From: a virus | Lineage: Duplodnaviria; Heunggongvirae; Uroviricota; Caudoviricetes | Strand: one strand, 5' to 3' | Virus record (IMG/VR): IMGVR_UViG_2778261175_000004 | Length of the DNA stretch: 28,329 nucleotides | Shown: positions 8,590-28,329 of the stretch, piece after piece | Position numbering within the stretch: the first letter of the stretch is position 1 | Layout: every line of letters starts with the position of its first letter | The notes under the pieces: model-generated | Seen by the model: only the letters and a program-made list of their open reading frames with translations | Databases searched by the model: none | What the model was told of the DNA's origin: nothing | Translations under genes and position numbers: made by a program

Positions 8590-8883
8590 ATGAAAAAAAT
8601 GTTGTTTTCTGCCGCTCTGGCAATGCTTATTACAGGATGTGCTCAACAGACGTTTACTGTTGGAAACAAACCGACAGCAGTAACACCAAAGGAAACCATC
8701 ACCCATCATTTCTTCGTTTCGGGAATTGGACAGGAGAAAACTGTTGATGCAGCCAAAATTTGTGGCGGCGCAGAAAATGTTGTTAAAACAGAAACCCAGC
8801 AAACATTCGTAAATGGATTTCTCGGTTTTATTACTTTAGGCATTTATACTCCGCTGGAAGCGCGTGTGTATTGCTCACAATAA
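8590..8883 (+). CDS. bor: Bor lipoprotein (serum-resistance outer-membrane lipoprotein)
   Basis: From the Met at 8590: MKKMLFSAALAMLITGCAQQTFTV...LEARVYCSQ, 97 aa with lipobox LITGC; matches recalled lambda Bor / DLP12 BorD. Oriented opposite to the late genes, as in lambda. Confidence 0.9.
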   Translation: MKKMLFSAALAMLITGCAQQTFTVGNKPTAVTPKETITHHFFVSGIGQEKTVDAAKICGGAENVVKTETQQTFVNGFLGFITLGIYTPLEARVYCSQ

Positions 8884-9376: not shown

Positions 9377-9870
9377 TGCTGACCCCACAAACAGATTTCA
9401 CGCTCAATCTCACGACGAGTCATGAGACCTTTCCATTGCTTACCGCCAGCATATGTCCAGCGACGTAGCTGATCACATGCGCCTTTGATATCGCCCTGGT
9501 TTATTTTGCGAAGAAGCGTCGATGTTCTGAAATTGCCAGCACCCACGTTGTAAACGAATGAGTAAAGAGCGCCGCGCGTTGTTTCCGGTATATCGACTTT
9601 GATGTACGGGTTAATTTGTCTGGCGACAGTGGCAAGGTCTTTATTCAAGAGTGCTTTGCATTCTGCTTTGGTATACGTTTTACCGAGCATGATGTCTTTT
9701 CCTGTATGCCCGTGACATACAGTCCATACACCAACAATATCTTTGTATGGTATGTAGCTGACACCCTCCAGACCATCGTTACCACTTGAGCCAGTGATTA
9801 ACACTGATGCTATAGCAATTGCTCCGCCACCAATAGCAGCAGCAACGGCTTTTCGTAATGATGGAGGCAT
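9373..9870 (-). CDS. R: SAR (signal-anchor-release) endolysin, phage 21 R / DLP12 RrrD type lysozyme
   Basis: 165 aa, [57 protein letters not shown]...; N-terminal Gly/Ala-rich SAR domain; matches recalled RrrD. Confidence 0.9.
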
Positions 9871-10211: not shown

Positions 10212-10273
10212 TAGCTGAAAGCATCATACAATTATCAAATACGAAAATTACAAAATCATTAAAACGCATCACG

Positions 10274-11005
10274 TTACATCATGTCTTTTTCTAAAAAAAG
10301 TCTTGATGAATATTGATGGGGAGGAACACCAAAATATCTTCTGAAAACACTCACAAAATATGACGTGTTTTCATAACCGCATATCTCAGCAACTTTTCCA
10401 ACAGAATATAAATTGTAGCTTAATAACCTTTCCGCCATCACCATTCGCTCTTCAAGAATTAACTTACTAAATGATAAGCCTTCGTGCTTTAATTTTCTTT
10501 TTAACAGACTTTCACTCAGATACAGTCTTGAAGATATATCACAAAGTCTCCATGCTGCAGATATATCCGTGTGAATAATAGCCTTAACTTTACTTCCTAA
10601 ACTATTAAGACATCCAAATAAAAAACTTTGCACTATTTTCTCTGAAGATAAGATAGCAAGACATGCAAGTGATATTTGATTTCTAACAAAATCCACAGTT
10701 CTGCCATCACAATTCAAGCATGCAATCAAGTTCTTTAACAATGAAAAATCTTCACATTCCACCATCAAGTATGCCGGATAAAACCTTCTTACAGAAAAAG
10801 GTGAGAGTGTGTTGCTTTTAAAGAAATCATTAACTGTTTTCTCTTCAACATCTACGATCATTACATGATCTATATTTGATGAAAAAAAATCTTTTAAATT
10901 GTAATCAATGAGAACAGCACTTCCTTTTTTAAACAAAATATCTTCTTTACCAATTCGGACATCAAACGAGTTCAACACCAAAATGATAGAACATATGTAT
11001 GGCAT
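10274..11005 (-). CDS. AraC-family transcriptional regulator (AppY-like), AT-rich cargo gene
   Basis: C-terminal AraC helix-turn-helix region (...KVAEICGYENTSYFVSVFRRYFGVPPHQY). N-terminus MPYICSIILVLNSFDV resembles recalled AppY MDYVCSVVFICQSFDL. ATG at 11005 has an AGGTGG ribosome-binding site; the track ORF begins 3 codons upstream at a GTG. Low GC relative to flanking phage genes. Confidence 0.8.
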   Translation of the reverse strand: MPYICSIILVLNSFDVRIGKEDILFKKGSAVLIDYNLKDFFSSNIDHVMIVDVEEKTVNDFFKSNTLSPFSVRRFYPAYLMVECEDFSLLKNLIACLNCDGRTVDFVRNQISLACLAILSSEKIVQSFLFGCLNSLGSKVKAIIHTDISAAWRLCDISSRLYLSESLLKRKLKHEGLSFSKLILEERMVMAERLLSYNLYSVGKVAEICGYENTSYFVSVFRRYFGVPPHQYSSRLFLEKDMM

Positions 11006-11356
11006 ATTATCCACCTGATATCATTGGGGTTACACCAGGTAAGTATAGGTGGAAAATCAATATTCGCCAGTTCAACAATAAGGAAAATCTCATTGCATCA
11101 CAAGTATAAAATTATGTATTTAACTCACAAAGACAAATTATTAAACCAATCTGTTATATTATATATAGCTGCGTGGAATCATAATATTATATATTTTGAC
11201 TGGCATGTTTACCAACTTTAAGTTGCATCTCAATGGTTTCTTCAGCGTAAACAGAGTTTTTATACAAACTGACACTCTGGGTATCATAGTGTAGTTTTTA
11301 CGATTGTAAATATCCTGCATGCAGGAACTCATCCTTTTGGATGATATCGCATACAA

Positions 11357-12316
11357 TTAATTTACCATCAGTCTTAGAGCCAGTTCGTCCGGATAGGGAT
11401 CGAAGTAATTCTGTGTAAGCAAGTAATCATTAGGATACTCACCCAGATAATGCTTCAGCAGAGTCAACGGCGCAAGAAGAGGTAATGTGCCAGAACGATA
11501 GTTAAGTATAACCTCGCTCAACTCTTTACGCTGGCGTGTACTTAAGTAGTTACTAAAATACCCCTGTATATGCATCAGCACATTCGTGTGATTTTTACGT
11601 GATGCAGGTTTTCTGAGAATCGCCATCAGCTTATCACGATACACCTCAAAGTATGATTCAAGGTCCGCCCACTCGTGTATTGCAGCCACAAATGGTCCCA
11701 TATCTTTATAGCCTGCCTGACTATGCGCCAACAACTGAAGCTTATAACGACTATGAAAAGCTAATAACTCTCTTCTTGATAATTTCTCCTTGTAAAGGTG
11801 ATTGAGCTCATGCAAAGCAAAAACTCTTTCAACAAAATTCTCACGAAGCACTGGATCATGTAATCGCCCATCCTCTTCAACCGGTAGCCAGGAAAACTTT
11901 TCCATCAAAGTGCTCGTAAATAGTCCCACTCCATCTTTACGACCTCGATTACCATTTTCATCATAGACACGCACGCGCTCCATGCCACAGCTGGGAGATT
12001 TAGCACAAACCACAAACCCCGATACATCCTTTAATTTGTCCATATAAGAACGACTAAACTCTGTCATTCTCTCTGTCACATCCTCATTCTGGTCGTGGCT
12101 GAAACACATCCGTATATTTCCTTGCGTCGAGCGCACAAGACGTAGAGCAGGACGCGGAACTGGCAGCCCTATAGCCATTTCCGGACATACTGGTCTGAAT
12201 GTTACCCATTCCACTAATTTGTCCATTAAAAAGTCAGCTCTTTTGTGACCACCATCAAAACGAACAGCAGAGCCGGCCAAACAACCGCTGATTCCAATCA
12301 CAGGTTTTTTTATCAT
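11357..12316 (-). CDS. TudS/RudS-like thio-nucleobase desulfidase: DUF523 [4Fe-4S] domain fused to DUF1722
   Basis: 319 aa. N-terminus MIKKPVIGISGCLAGSAVRFDGGHKR with further Cys in PVCPEM and AKSPSCGM fits the recalled DUF523 (TudS) cluster-binding pattern. The C-terminal half (about 170-319) fits the DUF1722 size and position seen in RudS-type fusions. Strong GGGGGAGA ribosome-binding site. Domain assignment is from memory, not a profile search. Confidence 0.65.
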   Translation of the reverse strand: MIKKPVIGISGCLAGSAVRFDGGHKRADFLMDKLVEWVTFRPVCPEMAIGLPVPRPALRLVRSTQGNIRMCFSHDQNEDVTERMTEFSRSYMDKLKDVSGFVVCAKSPSCGMERVRVYDENGNRGRKDGVGLFTSTLMEKFSWLPVEEDGRLHDPVLRENFVERVFALHELNHLYKEKLSRRELLAFHSRYKLQLLAHSQAGYKDMGPFVAAIHEWADLESYFEVYRDKLMAILRKPASRKNHTNVLMHIQGYFSNYLSTRQRKELSEVILNYRSGTLPLLAPLTLLKHYLGEYPNDYLLTQNYFDPYPDELALRLMVN

Positions 12317-12508
12317 ATTCTCCCCCTTGACTAATTCATTAACACATAAACTGTGTAGTGCACGGAATAAATTGCCTTTCTGGCGTCATCACTGACAATT
12401 TTTCTGTTATAGACTATTCCTAATATAGTATGAAAGTTCTTTAAGTGATCGGTCGTAATCATCTATCTTTCATACTTACTCTCAACTATCAAAAGTACAG
12501 GATTTATT

Positions 12509-13033
12509 ATGAAGTTATGGCCTGTGTTGACTGGCATTGCACTCTCTTTCACTCTTATAGCATGTAAGGCCCCGACACCACCTAAAGGTGTGCAGCCGAT
12601 TACAAATTTTGACGCCAACCGCTACCTCGGAAAATGGTATGAAATAGCTCGCCTCGAGAACCGGTTCGAACGTGGTCTGGAACAGGTCAGCGCTACCTAT
12701 GGAAAACGGAACGACGGAGGGATTCGTGTACTTAACCGTGGATACGATCCAACGAAAAATAAATGGAGCGAGAGCGAAGGTAAAGCATACTTTACTGGAG
12801 ATACTAAAACTGCAGCGTTGAAGGTTTCGTTTTTTGGCCCCTTCTATGGTGGCTATAATGTAATCAAACTGGATGATGAGTATAAGTATGCTCTTGTCAG
12901 TGGTCCGAACAGAGAATACCTATGGATTCTGGCAAGGACCCCAACTATTCCAGATAAAGTAAAAGCAGACTATGTGCGAACCGCTCAAAAGTTGGGATTC
13001 AATGTCAATGAATTATTATGGGTTAAACAATAA
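12509..13033 (+). CDS. Bacterial lipocalin Blc-type outer-membrane lipoprotein (divergent homolog)
   Basis: 174 aa with lipobox FTLIAC. Blocks NFDANRYLGKWYEIARLENRFERGLE, SEGKAYFTG, AALKVSFFGPFYGGYNVI and YLWILARTPTI closely parallel recalled E. coli Blc, but with many substitutions (roughly 60-65 percent identity by eye). Confidence 0.85.
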   Translation: MKLWPVLTGIALSFTLIACKAPTPPKGVQPITNFDANRYLGKWYEIARLENRFERGLEQVSATYGKRNDGGIRVLNRGYDPTKNKWSESEGKAYFTGDTKTAALKVSFFGPFYGGYNVIKLDDEYKYALVSGPNREYLWILARTPTIPDKVKADYVRTAQKLGFNVNELLWVKQ

Positions 13034-13648: not shown

Positions 13649-13789
13649 ACTTCATACTCCTGCTCCTGTCAGTGTTTTGGCGTAATTCTTCAGTATTCGG
13701 TAATCGGTCAAAACAGAGCCGGGGAAACGATATAAGCGCAGACGCCCCCAGCGGTGGCGAAGAAGTTCTGCCATATTAAACTCAAACAT
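13649..13789 (-). CDS. ylcG: Small nin-region protein YlcG-like (46 aa)
   Basis: Manual translation of the minus strand: MFEFNMAELLRHRWGRLRLYRFPGSVLTDYRILKNYAKTLTGAGV; ATG overlaps the rusA stop (TGATG). Below the ORF-track size cut-off. Confidence 0.5.
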
Positions 13790-14152
13790 CATTCATTCCC
13801 CATTTCGGTGATGGTCAGTTCCAGCCTCCCACCTTTGGTAACAGGCATCTTCACAACGCGGTAATCAACGACCTGAGCATCATCCAGCCAGAAACCTGCT
13901 TTAGTGAGTGCGTCAAAAGCGGCTTTTTGCAGATTATCCAGGTCACGGCTACGGCGATCCGGCATGTGGCACTCAATGCGGATTTTCACAGGCATAGCCA
14001 GGCCGATATCCAGCATTGCGTTTTTAATGATTCGGGCGACGTTATCGCGGTATGCCTGCCCCCTCTGCACTGACGTGCGTGCGCCCGCGATTATGGCGGT
14101 AATAGCGATTATTGCTCGGAGGCCAGGGTAATGTGATACTGTAGGTATTCAC
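13789..14152 (-). pseudogene. rusA: Holliday-junction resolvase rusA, disrupted by a +1 frameshift in a G5 run (C5 on the forward strand, 14059-14063)
   Basis: Minus-strand GTG at 14152 gives [31 protein letters not shown], the recalled RusA N-terminus, then hits a stop after the G5 run. The remaining RusA sequence ([19 protein letters not shown]...TITEMGNE) continues in the +1 frame as track ORF 13789..14070. Confidence 0.75.
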
Positions 14153-14439
14153 GCCTTAATAACCCCCTCTTTCAGCCAGATAACCTGTGTTCTCGCCATA
14201 CCTTCCAGCGCGCATTCTTTTGCATATGCAGCATCGACAAAATGTGTGCGGCGGTCGATTTCGTCGTGGCAGGCAGAACATGCAATGGTGGCAATCAGGT
14301 CTGGCGGTTTGATACCGGTACCGCACAATCCAGCCAGCCGGATATGTGCCAGTACAGACGTTTCAGAATTGCCATTACATACGCCAGGGATTCTTACCTG
14401 GCATTCCCGACCACGCGCTGCTTTTCTCAAATCAGCCAT
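14149..14439 (-). CDS. ybcO: YbcO-like nin-region protein (putative nuclease, DUF1364)
   Basis: From the internal Met: [42 protein letters not shown]...EGVIKA, 96 aa; matches recalled DLP12 YbcO. Four Cys suggest a metal site. Confidence 0.8.
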
Positions 14440-14602
14440 GATTCCTCCTTGCTGCCAGTCGCAACCATTTTTTATCAACCAGGCTAGCGGTATATCCGAG
14501 CAGTGTTGGTATTTCGGATGGCTTCAGCTCAGGCTTACGCTTACGACGATTTGATACTCTGTAGATGTGTCCGTTCATGACACGAATAAGCGGTGTAGCC
14601 AT
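14432..14602 (-). CDS. ninE: NinE-like protein (56 aa)
   Basis: Manual translation: [56 protein letters not shown]; start overlaps the ybcN stop (TAATG), end overlaps the ybcO start. Below the track size cut-off. Confidence 0.65.
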   Translation of the reverse strand: MATPLIRVMNGHIYRVSNRRKRKPELKPSEIPTLLGYTASLVDKKWLRLAARRNHG

Positions 14603-15057
14603 TACGCCTCCTGCTTGTCGCGGAGCAGCTGGAACTCGCAGCTCTGCGGAATAGTCAGGTGGCAGCCAATATTCACCGCCCAGGCTTCAACCTTACACAG
14701 GAAGACATACATCTCTCCGGTATCAAGATCGGAGGTATGGCGTAACGACTGGATAGTGGTGATATCACCGGTTACGACATCAACCAGGTCTTTGGTTTCA
14801 TAACCGAGATATGTGTGTTTGAGAGCATCTTTTACCCAAGCTGGAGTGGCGAACGTTTTACCCCTGCTGATGAGGTATTCACTGATTTCGCTGTACCACA
14901 TGTGGCTGAGTGCATTCTGGGAAAGACTGCGTTTCTCACGCCACGGTTTAAGCACCATGCGAAAGCATTTGCCCTCCTCCAGATAAGGCTGGATCTGCCG
15001 ACCGATAGCGGTGAAGTTGCCGCGATGTAATTTGATGCCGTCTTGTGAGAGGTTCAC
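14602..15057 (-). CDS. ybcN: YbcN-like nin-region protein (DNA base-flipping protein family)
   Basis: 151 aa, [55 protein letters not shown]...; matches recalled DLP12 YbcN; start codon is GTG. Confidence 0.8.
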
Positions 15058-15155
15058 GCTTCACCTCCGCAGAGGTCAAACGCTAGATGCAAAGAATTGC
15101 AGGTGCATTTCTGCATCTGTGAAGGGAGAAGAGAGTTTGGATTGTATGTGCGCAT
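15054..15155 (-). CDS. ylcH: Small protein YlcH-like (33 aa)
   Basis: Manual translation: [33 protein letters not shown]; stop overlaps the ybcN GTG (GTGA). Identity to K-12 YlcH is assumed from position and length only. Confidence 0.3.
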
Positions 15156-15271
15156 AAACGTCCCCGTTTAGCGCAGAAGTCACCGGAGTTGTTCAGGCTC
15201 CGGTGACATAATTATGCCGTGTTGATTTCCCAAAATCAAAATCGATAGAATTGCTCCTTCTTAAAACACTT

Positions 15272-16069
15272 TTACTCTCTGGAAGCTTTTCTTATCTCTC
15301 TTGGTGTTATATTAAAACGATTATGAAATCTTTCAGTAAAACGAGAAGGACACTTATAACCATTTTCTCTGGCAATCTCGCTTATAGGTTTTACCGTCGT
15401 TTGTATAGCAGACAACGCATTATTTAACCTCACATCGTCCAGTATACTTTGGAAACTTACCCCCTCGCTTGCTAGACGGCGATGTAATGTAGAAACAGAA
15501 ATGTAGAGATATCGAGCAACCTTGTTTGCTGTCCATTTTGTGCCGGGTTCGGATAGCAGCAGGTTATAACAACGACTTATCAATGATTGTTTACTATATG
15601 ATAAAAGTAAATGATTAACATGATTCACTCCTAACGAAAGTAGAACGCCCATTGCTAAGTGCTCCTGAATTTTAGTTGAGAAGCCTCGGGAAACAGATGT
15701 TTTTAGTTGCTCCCAACAATATATTAACTCAGGATTCTGAGGTAAAAAGAAACTTGTTTTGTTACGTATTTGATCAGTTACCGTATAAAGTTTTTGGAAA
15801 CTCTCAATTAAATCAATGGGTAAGTAAAGCATTTCTGCAAGATAAAGCCCTGCTTCAGGATAATTCTCAATATAAAATTCATAACCACAAGGAAATAATA
15901 TTATTTGATTATTATCAACAGTTAAAGTATGCGTCTCCCAATTGATAACTTTCTTTCCCTGACGGATACGACACAAAGCTGGCATAAGAGGCTTAACCCT
16001 ATGAATCTCATGATGTTTATGCATCCGTATTTCTTCGATCTTTAAGTTAGTCTTACCTCTTGCCAGCAT
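15272..16069 (-). CDS. ybcM: AraC-family transcriptional regulator YbcM-like
   Basis: 265 aa; C-terminal AraC helix-turn-helix (...[42 protein letters not shown]...). Matches DLP12 YbcM in position and length. Confidence 0.8.
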
Positions 16070-16078
16070 ACTCTCACC

Positions 16079-16630
16079 CTACTTTATCTCATAAACTGGT
16101 GTTATCTCAGCGGTTGCGATTTTATTAGCATTAAGCATATAACCAACTAACGCTCCGCTGGAGTTAGAATCTACAGGAATCTTTTCAGTTTTTAGAGCCC
16201 ATACTTTAAACTGGTAATGATGTGGTTTATCTCCTTTAGGAGGACACGCGCCACCAAACCCAGCATAGCCAAAATCATTTCGGCCTTGAACAGCACCAGT
16301 CGGCAGTTTTGTTCCATCACGTCTCCCTGCATCAACGGGCAAATATGTTATTGTTGCTGGAATATTAACAACAGTCCAATGCCACCAACCACTGCCTGTA
16401 GGTGCATCTGGATCATATACAGTTACGGCAAAGCTTTTGGTACCTTCAGGAACACCAGACCAGGTTAATGAGGGCGATGTATTACCACCTTCACACCCAA
16501 ATCCAGAAAAGACATGAGACGTTGTAAGTTGCTCTCCTGTTTTTATTTCATTACTAGTGACCTGAAATGCTGCAGCCTGCGCAGAAAATGTTATGAATGC
16601 CAATACAGTTGAAACGATAAGTGTTTTCAT
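16079..16630 (-). CDS. ybcL: Periplasmic phosphatidylethanolamine-binding protein (PEBP / Raf kinase inhibitor-like) YbcL-like
   Basis: 183 aa with signal peptide MKTLIVSTVLAFITFSAQA; PEBP motifs (...YDPDAPTGSGWWHW...HHYQFKVWAL...). Confidence 0.85.
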   Translation of the reverse strand: MKTLIVSTVLAFITFSAQAAAFQVTSNEIKTGEQLTTSHVFSGFGCEGGNTSPSLTWSGVPEGTKSFAVTVYDPDAPTGSGWWHWTVVNIPATITYLPVDAGRRDGTKLPTGAVQGRNDFGYAGFGGACPPKGDKPHHYQFKVWALKTEKIPVDSNSSGALVGYMLNANKIATAEITPVYEIK

Positions 16631-16846
16631 AAAAACCTCTTTGTTATGACCTATCGTTATTTTATTTGATATTCCTTTATCTCATTATGCATAAAGGCGC
16701 AATTTTTATGCAAAAGCAATCACAATTGTACCCCCAACCCAATTATTTGCCACAATATACACAAAGCACATTGATACTATCTAAAAACTCTGCTTTATTA
16801 TTAGTAATACCTACGAAAGTCGGTGTTATTTTTTAACCTATCATTC

Positions 16847-16896
16847 AAAATACGTGACATACACCATTTTGCTCATAATAATTTGTCACGTATTTT
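16847..16896. repeat. Perfect 13-bp inverted repeat AAAATACGTGACA / TGTCACGTATTTT with a 24-bp spacer, in the ybcK-ybcL intergenic region
   Basis: Direct reading: 16847-16859 and 16884-16896 are exact reverse complements. Confidence 0.9.
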
Positions 16897-17094
16897 CAGT
16901 ATTTGAATCTGCGACCAAGAGTTCTCACCTGACAAATGATTAAGATTGTATAGCTCATTTACTACCCCAATACAGCCGTACAAAACTCGCTTGTGGGAGC
17001 AAACAAAGTAATTACCCATTAAGTTTCGTCAAAGATAATTAATTCTGTCTTGCACTTTATCACCATAGCATAACTTAAAATCCGAGATCATTAT

Positions 17095-18621
17095 TTAGAA
17101 ATAAATCTCACCATCAACCATATATTTGAGAGCACTTATCGCCTGCTGGGCGGATATTACTTTCATTAAAGGATAGTGTTTAAAAACAATGCCATTCATA
17201 AAATAAATATCACAGGTTTTATTATCCGTATTAATTATGATTTTTTCGAATGTTTTATAGGCAAGTGTACGGCATAACTCTCGTCCATTTTTACTGGTTA
17301 AGTCAATAGCATAAAAATCACTGAATGAATTTACACCTTTACTCTTCAAAGTTTTCAATGATACCGAAGCCCTTCGTAATTCCTTATCTAATAGTCTTAT
17401 TTTCTCTGCTATAGCGGTAACTTCAGGCGCGACAGACAATGCAACGATTAAATTATTAATTTTCATCTGAAGCTCAATAATTTTTAACTCTAAAGTTTCA
17501 TTAGCATCTTTCTTGTTTTCAACTGGTTGAATTTTGCTACAATTAAAAAGCAATTCATTAATGATATTATAATCAACCAAATCTCTTTTTATTGATGGCC
17601 TGTCACATCGATGTAATCTTCTCATCGGACAAACATAATAGCCATGCAAACTTCCAGATACCGCATGAACAATCATGGTATTACCACAAGCCTCACACTT
17701 CATAACTGTTCGAAGTAGATTTATTAGCATAGGATTCTTGCTACTATTGCTAATACCAAAAGGTGCCAACCGAATTTCCTGTACAGCGTAAAACAAATCA
17801 TCTGATATGACTCTGGGATAATAGCCAGCGATTTCACTTATCCCTTTCCCTCTTGCACGATATGAAGGTACGCATATACCTATCAGAGCTTTATTCGCTA
17901 ATAATTTTTCAATTACAGAAGGTCCCCATGCACTTTCTTTTCCTGAGAAATTCTTTACAGCATGATCATTTAAATACTTGGCTATTGCATTCAATGAGCG
18001 CCTTTCCATCCTGAGTTTAAAAATTAGCTCAATAGTTTTCACCCTGTCGGGGTCTGGAACAAAAGCCGTTCTTTTGTCATCTAAGGAGAGCCATCTCGGA
18101 CAAGACGCCGTCATAATCGTACCTGATTCCAGTGCATCCTGCCGTTTTTTCTTCCATGATAATTTAACCCGACTTGACTTTATCTCGCTTTCTTCATTTG
18201 CCCTTTGTGCTATAAGTATGGCTTTTATTAATGAATATGGCTCATTCAAAGAGTCAATATTATAGACTGTATTGTCGCAAAGAGTTATAACATCAATACC
18301 GTGATTCAAAATCAATTTCAGACGTTCAATCGCTTCACCGACTTTTTCTCTTGAAAGTCTGTCCAGACTTTCAACTAACAATGTAGTTCCTGGCAATATA
18401 TAACCATGCTCTATAGCATCTAAAAATTCCGAAAAAGCTCCTGATTGTGCATGCTTTCCTTTGAATGCACTTAATCCTAAATCTTCATATGTTATGGTAT
18501 CAAGATAATAATCACTATTTACCTTTAACCATTCAGCAATAAGTCTTCTCTGTCGGTTTAATGAGTCACCAGACATCTGACCTGGTGATGAAAATCGCAT
18601 ATATGCTATGGCTTTTTTCAT
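17095..18621 (-). CDS. ybcK: Large serine recombinase (resolvase/invertase-type N-terminal catalytic domain plus large C-terminal domain), YbcK-like
   Basis: 508 aa. N-terminus MKKAIAYMRFSSPGQMSGDSLNRQRR... has the serine-recombinase catalytic motif (Y-x-R-x-S-S). C-terminal Cys cluster (CEACGNTMIVH...YYVCPMRRLHRC) is typical of large serine recombinases. Confidence 0.85.
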   Translation of the reverse strand: MKKAIAYMRFSSPGQMSGDSLNRQRRLIAEWLKVNSDYYLDTITYEDLGLSAFKGKHAQSGAFSEFLDAIEHGYILPGTTLLVESLDRLSREKVGEAIERLKLILNHGIDVITLCDNTVYNIDSLNEPYSLIKAILIAQRANEESEIKSSRVKLSWKKKRQDALESGTIMTASCPRWLSLDDKRTAFVPDPDRVKTIELIFKLRMERRSLNAIAKYLNDHAVKNFSGKESAWGPSVIEKLLANKALIGICVPSYRARGKGISEIAGYYPRVISDDLFYAVQEIRLAPFGISNSSKNPMLINLLRTVMKCEACGNTMIVHAVSGSLHGYYVCPMRRLHRCDRPSIKRDLVDYNIINELLFNCSKIQPVENKKDANETLELKIIELQMKINNLIVALSVAPEVTAIAEKIRLLDKELRRASVSLKTLKSKGVNSFSDFYAIDLTSKNGRELCRTLAYKTFEKIIINTDNKTCDIYFMNGIVFKHYPLMKVISAQQAISALKYMVDGEIYF

Positions 18622-18800
18622 GGTGACACCTGCTAACGTATGCTTTTATAAACCTTAGTGGTGGGATATAATTTTTGTTTAATTTTTATTTAAAAAGACA
18701 ATTAAGGTCACATTATCTTGAATATACAACAATAATCGTATTGCAATTTTCTTACGCCATAATCTTGAAAGCACAAAAGAATACATAAAAAATAAAGACA

Positions 18801-18845
18801 TTAACAAAAAGCATAAAACGAGGCTCATATAAATATAAGAGCCTC
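18801..18845 (-). terminator. Putative terminator downstream of emrE
   Basis: Stem GAGGCTC / GAGCCTC (18820-18826 / 18839-18845) with a 12-nt AT loop, followed on the minus strand by GTTTTATGCTTTTTG. The long loop makes this only moderately convincing. Confidence 0.35.
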
Positions 18846-18875
18846 CATATTTTAGTCGTTTAGAAACAAATTATT

Positions 18876-19211
18876 TTAATGTGGTGTGCTTCGTGACAAT
18901 AAATTAATAACCAACACACCGGCACAAATCAACATCATGCCTATAATAGCTGGCAGGTCCAGCCGTTGGTCGAAAAGTCCCCATGACAGTAAGCTAATCA
19001 GGACAATACCGACTCCTGACCAGATAGCATAAGCAATCCCTGTAGGAATATAAGCCAGCGTCTGAGCTAATAACCAGAATGATGCACAATAACAAATAAT
19101 TGTACCAACAGATGGCCATAACCGTGTAAAACCTTCTGAAAACTTCATTAAGGTTGTACCAATGACCTCTGCAAGTATTGCACCACCAAGATAAATATAA
19201 GGGTTCATAGC
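18876..19211 (-). CDS. emrE: Small multidrug resistance efflux transporter EmrE
   Basis: From the internal Met: MNPYIYLGGAILAEVIGTTLMKFSEGFTRLWPSVGTIICYCASFWLLAQTLAYIPTGIAYAIWSGVGIVLISLLSWG..., 110 aa; matches recalled E. coli EmrE. Confidence 0.95.
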   Translation of the reverse strand, partial: AMNPYIYLGGAILAEVIGTTLMKFSEGFTRLWPSVGTIICYCASFWLLAQTLAYIPTGIAYAIWSGVGIVLISLLSWGLFDQRLDLPAIIGMMLICAGVLVINLLSRSTPH

Positions 19212-19275
19212 ATATTCTTTCCTGTTCAAACTGGAGAGAATTGTACTACAGTTTGAACTCAACTCACCTGTTTCA

Positions 19276-19578
19276 TCATTGTGTACCCATTGATGTTCTT
19301 TTATATACCCTCAATACCCGTTTCATCGCGGCACTCTGGCGACACTCCTTAAAAATCAGATTCGTGCTCACCTTTCCTTCCCGTTCTTCTCTGGTAGCGA
19401 ACCGGTAATACACCGTTCGCCAGACCTTACCATCAACGACCAGGATTCCTGCCCGCGCCATTTTAGCCGCAGCCTGATTTATGCTGGTTACGGTTGCGCC
19501 TGTTACCGCGGCAACGTCCTGTGCACAGAAGCTCTTATGCGTCCCCAGGTAATGAATAATTGCCTCTTTGCCCGTCAT
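19276..19578 (-). CDS. ren: Ren protein (Rex exclusion escape), lambda-like
   Basis: 100 aa, MTGKEAIIHYLGTHKSFCAQDVAAVTGATVTSINQAAAKMARAGILVVDGKVWRTVYYRFATREEREGK...; matches recalled lambda Ren. Confidence 0.85.
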   Translation of the reverse strand: MTGKEAIIHYLGTHKSFCAQDVAAVTGATVTSINQAAAKMARAGILVVDGKVWRTVYYRFATREEREGKVSTNLIFKECRQSAAMKRVLRVYKRTSMGTQ

Positions 19579-26932: not shown

Positions 26933-27163
26933 ATGACAATCAATATTCAGCCGATTCTAATAAACCGCGAGCGTGTTCAGGAGATGCTTGGTGGTATCTC
27001 CAGAACTACTTTTTACCGGAAGCGTAAACAGTGGGAGCAATCAGGGACACCATTCCCTCGGGAAGTGGAAGAAATCCACCCACCGAAAGGCGGCGCCCTC
27101 TTTCGCTACAAGGAAGTTATTCAGTTTTGCAAAGATAAAGGATTGATTTCCGAACACTCTTGA
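26933..27163 (+). CDS. xis: Excisionase / AlpA-family helix-turn-helix protein
   Basis: 76 aa; ...INRERVQEMLGGISRTTFYRKRKQWEQSGTPFP... is the AlpA/Xis-type winged helix-turn-helix signature; adjacent to the integrase; GGAGA ribosome-binding site. Confidence 0.6.
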   Translation: MTINIQPILINRERVQEMLGGISRTTFYRKRKQWEQSGTPFPREVEEIHPPKGGALFRYKEVIQFCKDKGLISEHS

Positions 27164-28329
27164 ATTTTCTTAGCCCATAATTCTGCTGCGTCCTGCTGCT
27201 CGGGGATGTAGTCATACTGGTCATAAACAGCCAGCATCCCCGTGAGCTTATGCCCGAGAATTTTCTCCGAAACATGAGGTGCTACTCCAAGTTCAGCCAT
27301 TTTTGTTTTGCACGTTCTGCGCAGATCGTGCAATGACCAGTGCTCGCCCCCCATAACATCTTCTACCTGTTCTGCAATAGAAATTAGGGTGCTGGCAGAC
27401 ATTGGGCGATTTTCCTGTAACTTAGCCGGAGGAAATACGATTGACAGATCAGGGTATAGATCAAATACCTGCTGCAAATAATCTGCTGCGAGTTTTGAAA
27501 TACCGCGAACAAATCGCTTACGCGTTTTTGAGTTCTCTTTCGGTATAGTCCATTCTCTAGACTTCAGATCAAAATCAGTCTTCTTAGCCAACCGCAATTC
27601 AACACCACGACAACCAGTTAACGCAACAATTCGAATAAACATTTTGTTTTGCCACGACATTTTCGTTTTGTCGATGGCATTCCAGAATGCGCCTATCTCA
27701 ACATCGTTAAGAAAACGTTCGCCATTATTAGGTCTACTGCCGATATCATTAATCTCAAGAAGCATCAGTGCATTTGATGTTATGCGTTTTCTGCGTAACG
27801 CATAGCGGATCACTTGCTTCATCTTCACCAGTACATTTCCCGCCTGTACGGGTGACCCACCTTTTGTTATGCGAATGAATATTTGCTCCCACTCTACAGG
27901 ACTCATTTCATCTGCAATCAGCTTACCGTAATTGTCGGTGATGTGAAGTTTCAGCATCCGCTTCCAGTATTCGTACTTCACCATCTCTTTTACTGAAGGA
28001 GTATCAAACCACTCGTCAACTAGGGTACTGATGCTTGGGGAACTTGATGCAATATCTTTGGCTTTCTTCCTTTGCATGGCTGGGTCTTTACCCTTCTCCA
28101 ACCACCCTTTACACTCTTCCAATGCATCGCGAGCTTCCTTAAGCGACATCTTCCCGTACGTTCCGAGCTTTAACCTGGCGGGTTTTCCATTGAAACGATA
28201 GCGGTATTGAAAGGTGATAAGTCCCTTCGGGCTGATCCTGACAGAAAGTCCGCCTCCGTCAGCTATCTCCTCAGGTCCCTCATATGCTTTTCCGGATATA
28301 CGTCGCAGCTTTGTATCGTTGAGTGCCAT
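27121..28329 (-). CDS. int: Tyrosine integrase (P4-like family with N-terminal arm-binding DUF4102-type domain)
   Basis: 402 aa. MALNDTKLRRISGKAYEGPEEIADGGGLSVRISPKGLITFQYRYRFNGKPARLKLGTY is the classic P4-type integrase N-terminus. C-terminal catalytic region carries ...HDLRRT... and ...LGH...Y. The start codon is the last three bases of the window. Confidence 0.9.
   Translation of the reverse strand: MALNDTKLRRISGKAYEGPEEIADGGGLSVRISPKGLITFQYRYRFNGKPARLKLGTYGKMSLKEARDALEECKGWLEKGKDPAMQRKKAKDIASSSPSISTLVDEWFDTPSVKEMVKYEYWKRMLKLHITDNYGKLIADEMSPVEWEQIFIRITKGGSPVQAGNVLVKMKQVIRYALRRKRITSNALMLLEINDIGSRPNNGERFLNDVEIGAFWNAIDKTKMSWQNKMFIRIVALTGCRGVELRLAKKTDFDLKSREWTIPKENSKTRKRFVRGISKLAADYLQQVFDLYPDLSIVFPPAKLQENRPMSASTLISIAEQVEDVMGGEHWSLHDLRRTCKTKMAELGVAPHVSEKILGHKLTGMLAVYDQYDYIPEQQDAAELWAKKIQECSEINPLSLQN

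Follow-up and report, generated by a model that had tools for sequence, protein, structure and literature searches.

Four AT-rich genes, one of them encoding a large serine recombinase, interrupt the early region of an otherwise lambda-like phage, and the question raised by this locus is whether they are what is left of one integrative element or cargo gathered from several sources. The window, by which is meant the whole stretch of 28,329 nucleotides that was analysed (IMG/VR virus record IMGVR_UViG_2778261175_000004), had previously been described in a sequence-only reading, in which the genes were proposed to be the remnant of a separate integrative element or a moron with its own history of mobilisation.

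Gene content and composition of the block

The block (15272-19208) consists of emrE, ybcK, ybcL, and ybcM, all on the minus strand, and occupies the gap that separates ren from the ylcH-ybcN nin module (Table 1), with P and ren as its upstream neighbours and ylcH, ybcN, ninE, ybcO, rusA, and Q downstream. Across 15250-19250 the GC fraction was 0.31-0.43, compared with 0.48-0.56 in the flanks; together with the Pfam identities and the gene positions, this bears out the earlier description of an AT-rich emrE-ybcK-ybcL-ybcM block between ren and nin, and the tyrosine integrase that had been attributed to the same phage is indeed encoded in the window. No known RNA family was matched within the block in Rfam at E<=1, and none of six proteins matched a PADLOC defence model at E<=0.01. 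All four block genes are under purifying selection as measured by dN/dS, the ratios against the copy of the block at the fliE locus (see below) being 0.03 for emrE and 0.10 for ybcL, and the ratio for ybcM being 0.13.

Table 1. Coordinates and assignments of features in and around the cargo block
Feature	Position	Strand	Assignment and remarks
ybcN (NinB/Orf-like)	14602..15057	(-)	PHROG 72 NinB/Orf, E=6e-52; left flank, first gene of nin module
ylcH	15054-15155		adjoins ybcN, left of the variable slot
Promoter-like site (TTGATT-17-CATAAT), then 10-bp-stem hairpin	15179..15239	(-)	left slot edge, upstream of ylcH and ybcN
Variable slot	15241-17085		here ybcLM and the 300-bp spacer
ybcM	15272..16069	(-)	Pfam PF12833 AraC-type HTH_18, E=9.5e-17; AraC-family regulator; variable-slot cargo
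ybcL	16079..16630	(-)	Pfam PF01161 PBP/PEBP, E=7e-42; periplasmic PEBP/RKIP-like protein; variable-slot cargo
YbcM operator, ybcLM promoter region	16698..16731	(-)	K-12 ChIP-exo footprint mapped here, 2 mismatches
300-bp spacer	16786..17085		only in ybcK + ybcLM arrangement
Palindrome	16847..16896		50 bp; perfect 13-bp arms 16847-16859 and 16884-16896; 24-bp spacer
Module 2	17086-18868		ylcJ-ybcK
ybcK	17095..18621	(-)	508 aa; Pfam PF00239 Resolvase, PF07508 Recombinase, PF13408 Zn_ribbon_recom; PHROG 95 integrase, E=4e-120
ylcJ small ORF	18679..18828	(-)	inside ybcK untranslated leader; ylcJ annotation in RefSeq records
Module 1	about 18869-19285		emrE
emrE	18876..19208	(-)	Pfam PF00893 Multi_Drug_Res, E=2.6e-35; PHROG 1395, category moron; small multidrug-resistance efflux pump
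ren	19276..19578	(-)	PHROG 142 Ren-like exclusion protein, E=6e-42; final replication-module gene, right flank
Tyrosine integrase gene	27121-28329		same phage

Comparison with K-12 DLP12 and distribution

An alignment of 4278 bp showed the block to be collinear with prophage DLP12 of K-12 MG1655, at 17 mismatches and 0 gaps (99.6% identity), and the K-12 region (renD-emrE-ylcJ-ybcK-ybcL-ybcM-ylcH-ybcN) has the same gene set, order, and spacing as well as an identical 50-bp palindrome. DLP12 had been named in the sequence-only reading as holding this arrangement in degraded form, which is right as to the arrangement but not as to the degradation: the K-12 cargo block itself is intact, and the decay consists of the IS3 insertion that breaks renD together with large deletions elsewhere in the prophage. 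In the present phage, the prophage around the block looks intact, with an uninterrupted ren and with genes for head, tail, and integrase. The two also differ between Q and the lysis genes, where a slot is filled by lipocalin, YbgA, and HTH genes here and by an nmpC-type porin in K-12 DLP12.

Among isolated phages of the DLP12 type, the same four genes are found as an identical block in PhiR34_1 and PhiR70_1. In both of these, and in Bievrevirus 4A7, Perceval, 1W, and Turner, ren-emrE-ylcJ-ybcK is placed as it is here, with an esterase in place of ybcLM in 4A7, Perceval, and 1W, and P22AR-type and other small genes in the slot of Turner. The annotation of Perceval already reads 'Large serine recombinase' and 'Multidrug transporter EmrE'. 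The region is the ordinary and already known block of accessory genes in lambda-like phages of the DLP12 type, and as a feature of the window it is of little importance, being a textbook DLP12 cargo region in an intact-looking phage. The full four-gene block was found in 669 of 5426 complete E. coli genomes; the genome counts for its parts were 1427 for ybcK, ~670 for ybcLM with ybcK, and ~2600 for emrE-ybcLM without ybcK.

Three-part structure and edges of the block

The block is a composite rather than a single unit and is made up of three separately exchanged parts, namely emrE, ylcJ-ybcK, and the variable slot (Table 1); this patchwork corrects the earlier one-element reading. In the copy at the fliE locus, homology is restricted to 15055-16785 and 18869-19285, beginning on the ybcN side and ending on the ren side, and the 2083-bp ylcJ-ybcK-spacer segment between them (16786-18868) is exactly missing, with the junction 7 bp past the emrE stop codon. 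Sister prophages match only 14401-15240 and 17054/17086-19700, and the slot in sister phages holds an esterase, P22AR-type genes, or ~280 bp of nothing.

Because the block is a patchwork, emrE-ybcLM also persists without ybcK, next to fliE, as the remnant of an old prophage that is carried by roughly one in two E. coli genomes and retains a porin, the last ~100 bp of quuD, ylcH, and 10 bp of ren. That emrE-ybcLM came from the fliE locus as its original place in the chromosome was considered and rejected, the locus itself being a DLP12-like remnant. To tell insertion of the 2083-bp segment from its loss, a closer ybcK-less junction was sought and not found, the best match (91%) being a gene-conversion mosaic.

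Flanking direct repeats, which the earlier description had proposed to look for, did not rise above chance: at six candidate pairs of edges, the longest common words were 7-8 bp, a length that 152-401 of 500 shuffles attained or surpassed. On the right, the block ends at the ren 3' junction, and in a sample taken from 157 matching lambdoid phage records, homology ended at 19303 in those of lambda, phage 21, and Stx phages. The left edge of the slot is formed by the promoter-like site, called by a promoter scan, and the hairpin, whose coordinates were calculated from the sequence; both were kept in 7 of 7 aligned cargo variants, and divergence begins immediately upstream. The block is thus bounded by ordinary lambdoid junctions (the ren 3' end and the ylcH promoter) that lack a repeat signature, the pattern that the sequence-only reading had itself set against its proposal. 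Unrelated cargo found in the same interval of sister phages included PD-lambda-1, a HEPN pair, and ead/Ea22-like genes, the PD-lambda-1 defence gene lying between ren and nin in PhiR26_1. No clean empty site for the whole block was found, and the block-less relatives examined hold other cargo there.

In its position between conserved modules with sharp, common junctions, in a base composition distinct from that of the backbone, and probably, in the case of ybcLM, in regulation of its own, the block resembles lambdoid morons and the ren-nin hypervariable region. Of the features of a discrete integrative element, neither end repeats or half-sites were found nor, among the relatives examined, one in which the unit as a whole is missing and leaves a clean empty site. 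The block departs from the typical lambdoid moron in being a cluster of at least three units, one of which, a recombinase, is atypical as host-benefit cargo. The proposal of a moron with its own history survives in spirit, but for several morons or modules and not for a single one.

The YbcK recombinase

Judged by its sequence and its AlphaFold model, YbcK belongs to the large serine recombinases of the integrase type and is intact. The PF00239 catalytic domain was matched at E=5.5e-19, and residues R9, S11, Q15, D87, R88, and R91, as well as C309, C312, C331, and C339 of the zinc ribbon, are invariant across 25 relatives. In the model, helices 373-397 and 401-427 follow the ribbon as a coiled-coil hairpin, and a Foldseek search with it matched the full-length SPbeta, phiC31, and Bxb1 integrases (E=1e-13 to 1e-18). 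A profile of the YbcK family matched the SPbeta, A118, and TP901-1 integrases and was required for this purpose, a single-sequence search of the PDB having given 0 matches. In its fold and in the order of its domains, YbcK agrees with the large serine integrases (SPbeta SprA, A118/LI, phiC31, Bxb1, and TP901-1), but its identity to solved full-length integrases is only 15-18%, and it differs from them in an extra C-terminal alpha/beta domain (residues 444-507, with PHROG 2371 as sole match) and in sitting inside a prophage that integrates by a tyrosine integrase.

The dN/dS of ybcK was 0.06-0.08 between diverged alleles and 0.05-0.13 over all pairs; the gene, intact and with a value of ~0.07 inside prophages that integrate by other means, is under strong purifying selection and is not decaying, which implies a function. 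No cognate att pair was identified for YbcK, the sole candidate being the 50-bp palindrome, and no published assay of its recombination activity was found in the literature; the one phenotype described is that its overexpression confers tolerance of terpenes (PMC7181518). In K-12, a Rho-dependent terminator, tybcK, is reported to lie in the untranslated region upstream of ybcK (PMC4150792).

Closer relatives of YbcK are located in accessory regions of prophages. Relatives were found in the nin region of lambdoid prophages L017 and L018, the first of which has its own tyrosine integrase, and others, including those of Atlantibacter, Erwinia, Yersinia, and Citrobacter, at prophage ends after the tail-fibre genes; relatives of ~39% identity lie right at the border of a chromosomal island inserted in hofB, the place taken by an integrase. 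Those beside tail-fibre genes were considered as tail-fibre invertases, a role that was rejected as there is no room for an alternative invertible segment. The ybcK-type gene is transferred bare, from ~68 bp upstream to the stop codon, and no att-like symmetry was found at the ends of the transferred recombinase gene in L012 and L018. In strain c1-17, a breakpoint that lies ~59 bp ahead of ybcK was attributed to an IS1-mediated deletion and not to a site-specific event.

Spacer, palindrome, and regulation of ybcLM

The 300-bp spacer is without counterpart in the fliE-locus copy and in other ybcK-bearing variants; it was single-copy in each of 675 genomes and, among the sampled matches, always belonged to the ybcK + ybcLM arrangement. 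The inverted repeat within it, noticed in the earlier reading, is real; when the region was simulated 200 times with a first-order Markov model, arms as long as its perfect ones arose once. As RNA, the repeat is predicted to form a long hairpin with a 3' arm ending in UUUU (z=-2.15), and one arm could pair instead with 16927-16945. The palindrome was split in 0 of the 675 genomes and had no second copy in the window, where its half-site was not enriched, and it was found neither in other ybcK variants nor 3' of the gene in three relatives belonging to other genera. Its probable role is that of a hairpin that terminates transcription or insulates ybcLM from ybcK, and a terminator is likelier than a recombinase site. 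A role as the YbcM operator was rejected, as the K-12 footprint maps 115 bp away.

That footprint is the strongest YbcM site in K-12 ChIP-exo data, with RNA polymerase bound there too (PMC8464067), and on the basis of this site, mapped onto the window, ybcM autoregulates the ybcLM operon. A peroxide-sensitivity phenotype was also reported for YbcM (PMC8464067). Promoter and terminator calls in the window, including the emrE and ybcK promoters, are consensus matches, except for those carried over from K-12 experiments, to which the Rho terminator of ybcK belongs.

Origin of the block

The block very probably represents the accessory (moron) genes of a lambda-like temperate phage of the DLP12 type, pieced together in the hypervariable interval between O-P-ren and nin. 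Ordinary recombination of lambdoid genomes with one another at module junctions, and not a discrete self-integrating element, would have brought its parts together and reshuffled them; YbcK would not have mobilised the block. The genes are co-oriented with the early rightward transcript, so that read-through to Q would be left unblocked. In the lysogen, emrE and ybcLM would serve as host-benefit genes, the latter with the promoter and operator of their own that are experimentally supported in K-12, and ybcK would be kept low by the Rho-dependent termination likewise established by experiment in K-12. The recombinase gene itself would most likely be a captured integrase gene, retained to recombine a DNA substrate that is not recognisable in the window.

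It is unlikely that YbcK-type recombinases form a distinct accessory class that carries out an undescribed reaction, with the palindrome as substrate in this variant. Such a class would be one that is under strong selection in enterobacterial prophages, in their two classical regions of cargo, the nin region and the tail-fibre end, with at least one resolved case beside a tyrosine integrase, and its reactions could include integration at a back-up site, exchange of cargo beside its own gene, or recombination of incoming DNA.

Quite improbable is the reading of 16786-18868 alone as a small self-mobile element between emrE and ybcL, with the palindrome as its recombination site. The exact absence of the segment from the fliE-locus copy and the movement of the ybcK-type gene between unrelated contexts would fit such an element, as would the palindrome, since the attP sites of serine integrases are typically similar to it in size and outer-arm symmetry. 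However, repeats at the ends of the segment are not above chance, other ybcK phages share 17054/17086-18868 only and are without the palindrome, and the palindrome is single and intact in 675 of 675 genomes and missing from the examined 3' flanks of relatives. Its central dinucleotide, read from the sequence as GC, is symmetric and would be unable to set polarity, and the transferred recombinase segment ends without half-site symmetry. Near the junction, identity to the fliE remnant is only ~72%, so that the event is old and the junction not clean.

The proposal that emrE-ybcK-ybcL-ybcM as a whole is the remnant of one integrative element, inserted into the phage by YbcK, is very improbable and largely refuted. 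It would accommodate an intact integrase-type recombinase, a block that is AT-rich relative to the phage backbone, and distant YbcK relatives that sit as integrases at island edges, as inside hofB. Against it stand the three separable parts with their differing genomic distributions, the absence of flanking repeats or half-sites, and edges that are generic junctions used by many phages and for unrelated cargo.

Scarcely credible is an integron-like capture of cassettes, in which YbcK would insert cargo behind its own gene: variable cargo of at least four contents does start ~9-75 bp past the ybcK stop codon, but no repeats resembling recombination sites surround any cargo or the slot edges, the interval is equally variable in phages without ybcK, and the far edge, a promoter and hairpin, is of the module-junction type.

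Gene content and layout

The window holds a lambda-like prophage read on the minus strand, and an identical prophage with full sets of head and tail genes was found in E. coli WP2-W18-ESBL-10 and several other strains. A block of emrE, ylcJ, ybcK, ybcL and ybcM, all running in the direction of O, P, ren and Q, separates ren from the ylcH-ybcN nin module, and its GC content falls to 0.31-0.43 as against about 0.50-0.55 in both flanks. Because the genes and the GC dip lie where the sequence-only reading had placed them, its observation of an AT-rich emrE/ybcK/ybcL/ybcM block between ren and the nin genes was correct; the tyrosine integrase that it had ascribed to the phage was also located. A second, different cargo slot (10274-13033), with GC dipping to 0.31 at 10250-11250, lies between Q and the lysis genes, where DLP12, the cryptic lambda-like prophage of E. 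coli K-12, and phage 4A7 have an nmpC/ompC-type porin instead of the lipocalin, YbgA-family and HTH genes.

Features of the prophage in window coordinates
Feature	Coordinates	Strand	Remark
tyrosine integrase	27121-28329		gene carried by the identical prophage
ren	19276-19578		right flank of block
emrE	18876-19208	-	block
ylcJ	18679-18828	-	block
ybcK	17095-18621	-	block
ybcL	16079-16630	-	block
ybcM	15272-16069	-	block
ylcH	15054-15155		left flank of block
ybcN	14602-15057		left flank of block
rusA	13789-14152	-	frameshifted by annotation in the identical RefSeq prophage
lipocalin	12509-13033	+	second cargo slot
YbgA-family protein	11357-12316	-	second cargo slot
HTH protein	10274-11005	-	second cargo slot
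iss	8590-8883	+	bor-like serum-survival lipoprotein; between lysis and packaging genes

Block boundaries and distribution

On the right, homology of the sampled lambdoid records to the window (lambda, imm21, imm434, phage 21 and many Stx phages; 157 matching records in all) ends at 19303, 27 bp before the ren stop codon. On the left, all seven aligned cargo variants converge on a near-consensus promoter-like site (TTGATT-17-CATAAT, 15211-15239). All cargo variants, and even the ybcK-less remnant at fliE, keep it ahead of ylcH, and a perfect hairpin with a 10-bp stem (GTCACCGGAG...CTCCGGTGAC) directly follows it, just upstream of ylcH. This pair (15179-15239, minus strand) looks like the regulatory start of the nin module. 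The search for short direct repeats across six candidate edge pairs returned none above chance, the longest measuring 7-8 bp, a length that 152-401 of 500 shuffles equalled or beat. Both edges are thus ordinary module junctions that lack a repeat signature, and since this outcome had been named beforehand as refuting a single integrative element, the proposal that the block is a remnant of one is not supported.

Alignment of the block with DLP12 of K-12 MG1655 extends across 4278 bp, gap-free and with 17 mismatches. The arrangement previously described as degraded in DLP12 is the same, but the block itself is intact in K-12, and the degraded parts are renD (IS3 insertion) and the remaining prophage. 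Of 5426 complete E. coli genomes, 669 have the entire arrangement. The isolated phages PhiR34_1 and PhiR70_1 carry the full block, while phages 4A7 (Bievrevirus), Perceval, 1W and Turner have ren-emrE-ylcJ-ybcK plus different cargo; the Perceval annotation already reads 'Large serine recombinase' and 'Multidrug transporter EmrE'. The block is an already known, well-documented ordinary accessory region.

Composite structure and alternative cargo

The block is a composite, pieced together at a hot spot for cargo exchange, with sharp internal boundaries set by comparison with the fliE-locus copy, with sister prophages and phages, and with phages devoid of emrE and ybcK. In about 2600 genomes, the interval from yedK to fliE carries emrE-ybcL-ybcM without ybcK. 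That copy shows homology to the window solely at 15055-16785 and 18869-19285 (89-92% identity), lacks the 2083 bp (16786-18868) that comprise a 300-bp spacer, ybcK and ylcJ, and has its junction 7 bp past the emrE stop codon. The fliE locus was rejected as the native source of emrE-ybcLM because it is itself an old DLP12-like remnant. In the remnant (comparison loci L001, 6305-10154; L002; L103) ylcH is fused directly to an nmpC-type porin and the final ~100 bp of quuD, and at the other end the remnant takes in 10 bp of ren. In strain HH45, prophage-type sequence has overwritten the ybcLM (100% identity) and emrE (99% identity) segments of the remnant, while its junction is still of the remnant type. 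This mosaic indicates gene conversion between prophage and remnant; the two loci therefore still recombine.

Sister prophages and phages have in common with the window only 14401-15240 and 17054/17086-19700. The interval 15241-17085 is a variable slot. In the window it is occupied by ybcLM with the spacer; AVS0710, 4A7 and Perceval have an esterase there, encoded on the opposite strand, some others have P22AR-type genes, and O157 strains have ~280 bp of nothing. Some members of the same phage group lack both emrE and ybcK, and in such phages the interval from P/ren to ylcH contains a HEPN pair, ead/Ea22-like genes or a PD-lambda-1 defence gene. The isolated phage PhiR26_1 (PV340555.1, match H182) has a PD-lambda-1 defence gene and a Rha protein between ren and ybcN, and this slot therefore also takes anti-phage cargo. 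At a locus of HUSEC2011 (O104:H4; L021, 3432-4404), a deletion has fused a truncated emrE with the part of ybcK that encodes its C-terminal half, so the pair is dispensable in that lineage.

Cargo functions

EmrE is a classic small multidrug-resistance pump. Purifying selection was found on all four genes (dN/dS 0.03-0.13 against the fliE-locus copies), with ybcK at 0.06-0.08 between diverged alleles and 0.05-0.13 over all allele pairs. The ybcLM genes are a self-contained operon; by ChIP-exo in K-12, the strongest YbcM site is just upstream of ybcL, with RNA polymerase there too, and ybcM deletion increased peroxide sensitivity 8-fold (PMC8464067). The K-12 YbcM footprint falls at window 16698-16731. 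A Rho-dependent terminator in the untranslated leader before ybcK in K-12 (PMC4150792) fits silencing of AT-rich foreign DNA.

The 50-bp palindrome

The palindrome at 16847-16896 (AAAATACGTGACA-N24-TGTCACGTATTTT) is improbable by chance (13 bp attained in 1 of 200 simulations). Its RNA in the ybcK sense folds into a long hairpin with a 3' arm ending in UUUU. One arm (16873-16891) has a second partner 35 nt away at 16927-16945 (19 nt, 84% complementary), and these alternative pairings could form two mutually exclusive hairpins, terminator/antiterminator-like. Given these two properties and its restricted distribution, a terminator or insulator separating ybcK from ybcLM is the likelier role of the palindrome, ahead of an att-like recombinase site. 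Its size and outer-arm symmetry resemble attP sites of serine integrases, but it is restricted to the ybcK plus ybcLM arrangement, is single and intact in 675 of 675 genomes having it, and is absent from other ybcK-bearing variants and from the 3' flanks of three YbcK relatives in other genera; as an att site it would have GC, a symmetric dinucleotide, at its centre. A role as YbcM operator was rejected because the K-12 footprint maps elsewhere.

YbcK and its relatives

YbcK is predicted to be a complete large serine recombinase with resolvase, recombinase and zinc-ribbon domains. Residues R9, S11, Q15, D87, R88 and R91 and four cysteines are invariant in 25 relatives (Yersinia, Atlantibacter, Erwinia, Pantoea, Kluyvera, Citrobacter and beyond), the family profile retrieves the integrases of SPbeta, A118 and TP901-1, and the AlphaFold model (mean pLDDT 79), in which the coiled-coil hairpin is present, matches full-length integrase structures of SPbeta, phiC31 and Bxb1. 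Zero matches to YbcK were obtained with the PADLOC defence-system models. No published experiment was found in which YbcK recombines DNA, and the sole reported phenotype is improved terpene tolerance upon overexpression. YbcK is intact and kept by selection, a putative serine integrase carried in prophages whose own integration proceeds in other ways.

Relatives were found in four kinds of location: the nin region of lambdoid prophages (L017, Pantoea, which shows a tyrosine integrase of its own; L018, metagenome); prophage ends right after tail-fibre and chaperone genes, adjoining host DNA (Yersinia, Atlantibacter, Erwinia), with a tRNA- or tmRNA-type attachment site next to two of them; in Citrobacter koseri, an ICE- or plasmid-like region; and, in a clade of 39% identity, the outermost edge of an AbiTii island inside hofB, which is a true integrase position. 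This last was resolved in Serratia fonticola (L038, 9481-14458), where the relative (39% identity) begins 17-20 bp from a truncated hofB that retains no more of the T2SSE domain than its C-terminal third, and heads an island with two AbiTii genes and a small resolvase inside; a serine integrase put this island into hofB. For L037, L039 and L041, the aggregate Pfam counts point to a similar arrangement.

Loci L012 and L018 carry 77%-identical genes in unrelated contexts. Their shared sequence is limited to the gene, as far as its stop codon, plus the 68 bp that precede the start codon, and the ends of this segment lack half-site symmetry; the gene therefore travels bare, via general recombination. 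The L018 nin-region cassette (YbcK relative, KGG, DinI) lies between direct repeats of ~200 bp with 86% identity (9652-9851 and 12633-12831), formed by a duplicated 5' end of a DUF1367 gene whose upstream copy is truncated past codon 59. In the Citrobacter koseri locus (L016, ~9700-9805), at least 14 tandem CTTGTTT heptamers, which may be phase-variable, lie ~200 bp upstream of the YbcK relative, with TraD, MobA and a shufflon-like gene as neighbours.
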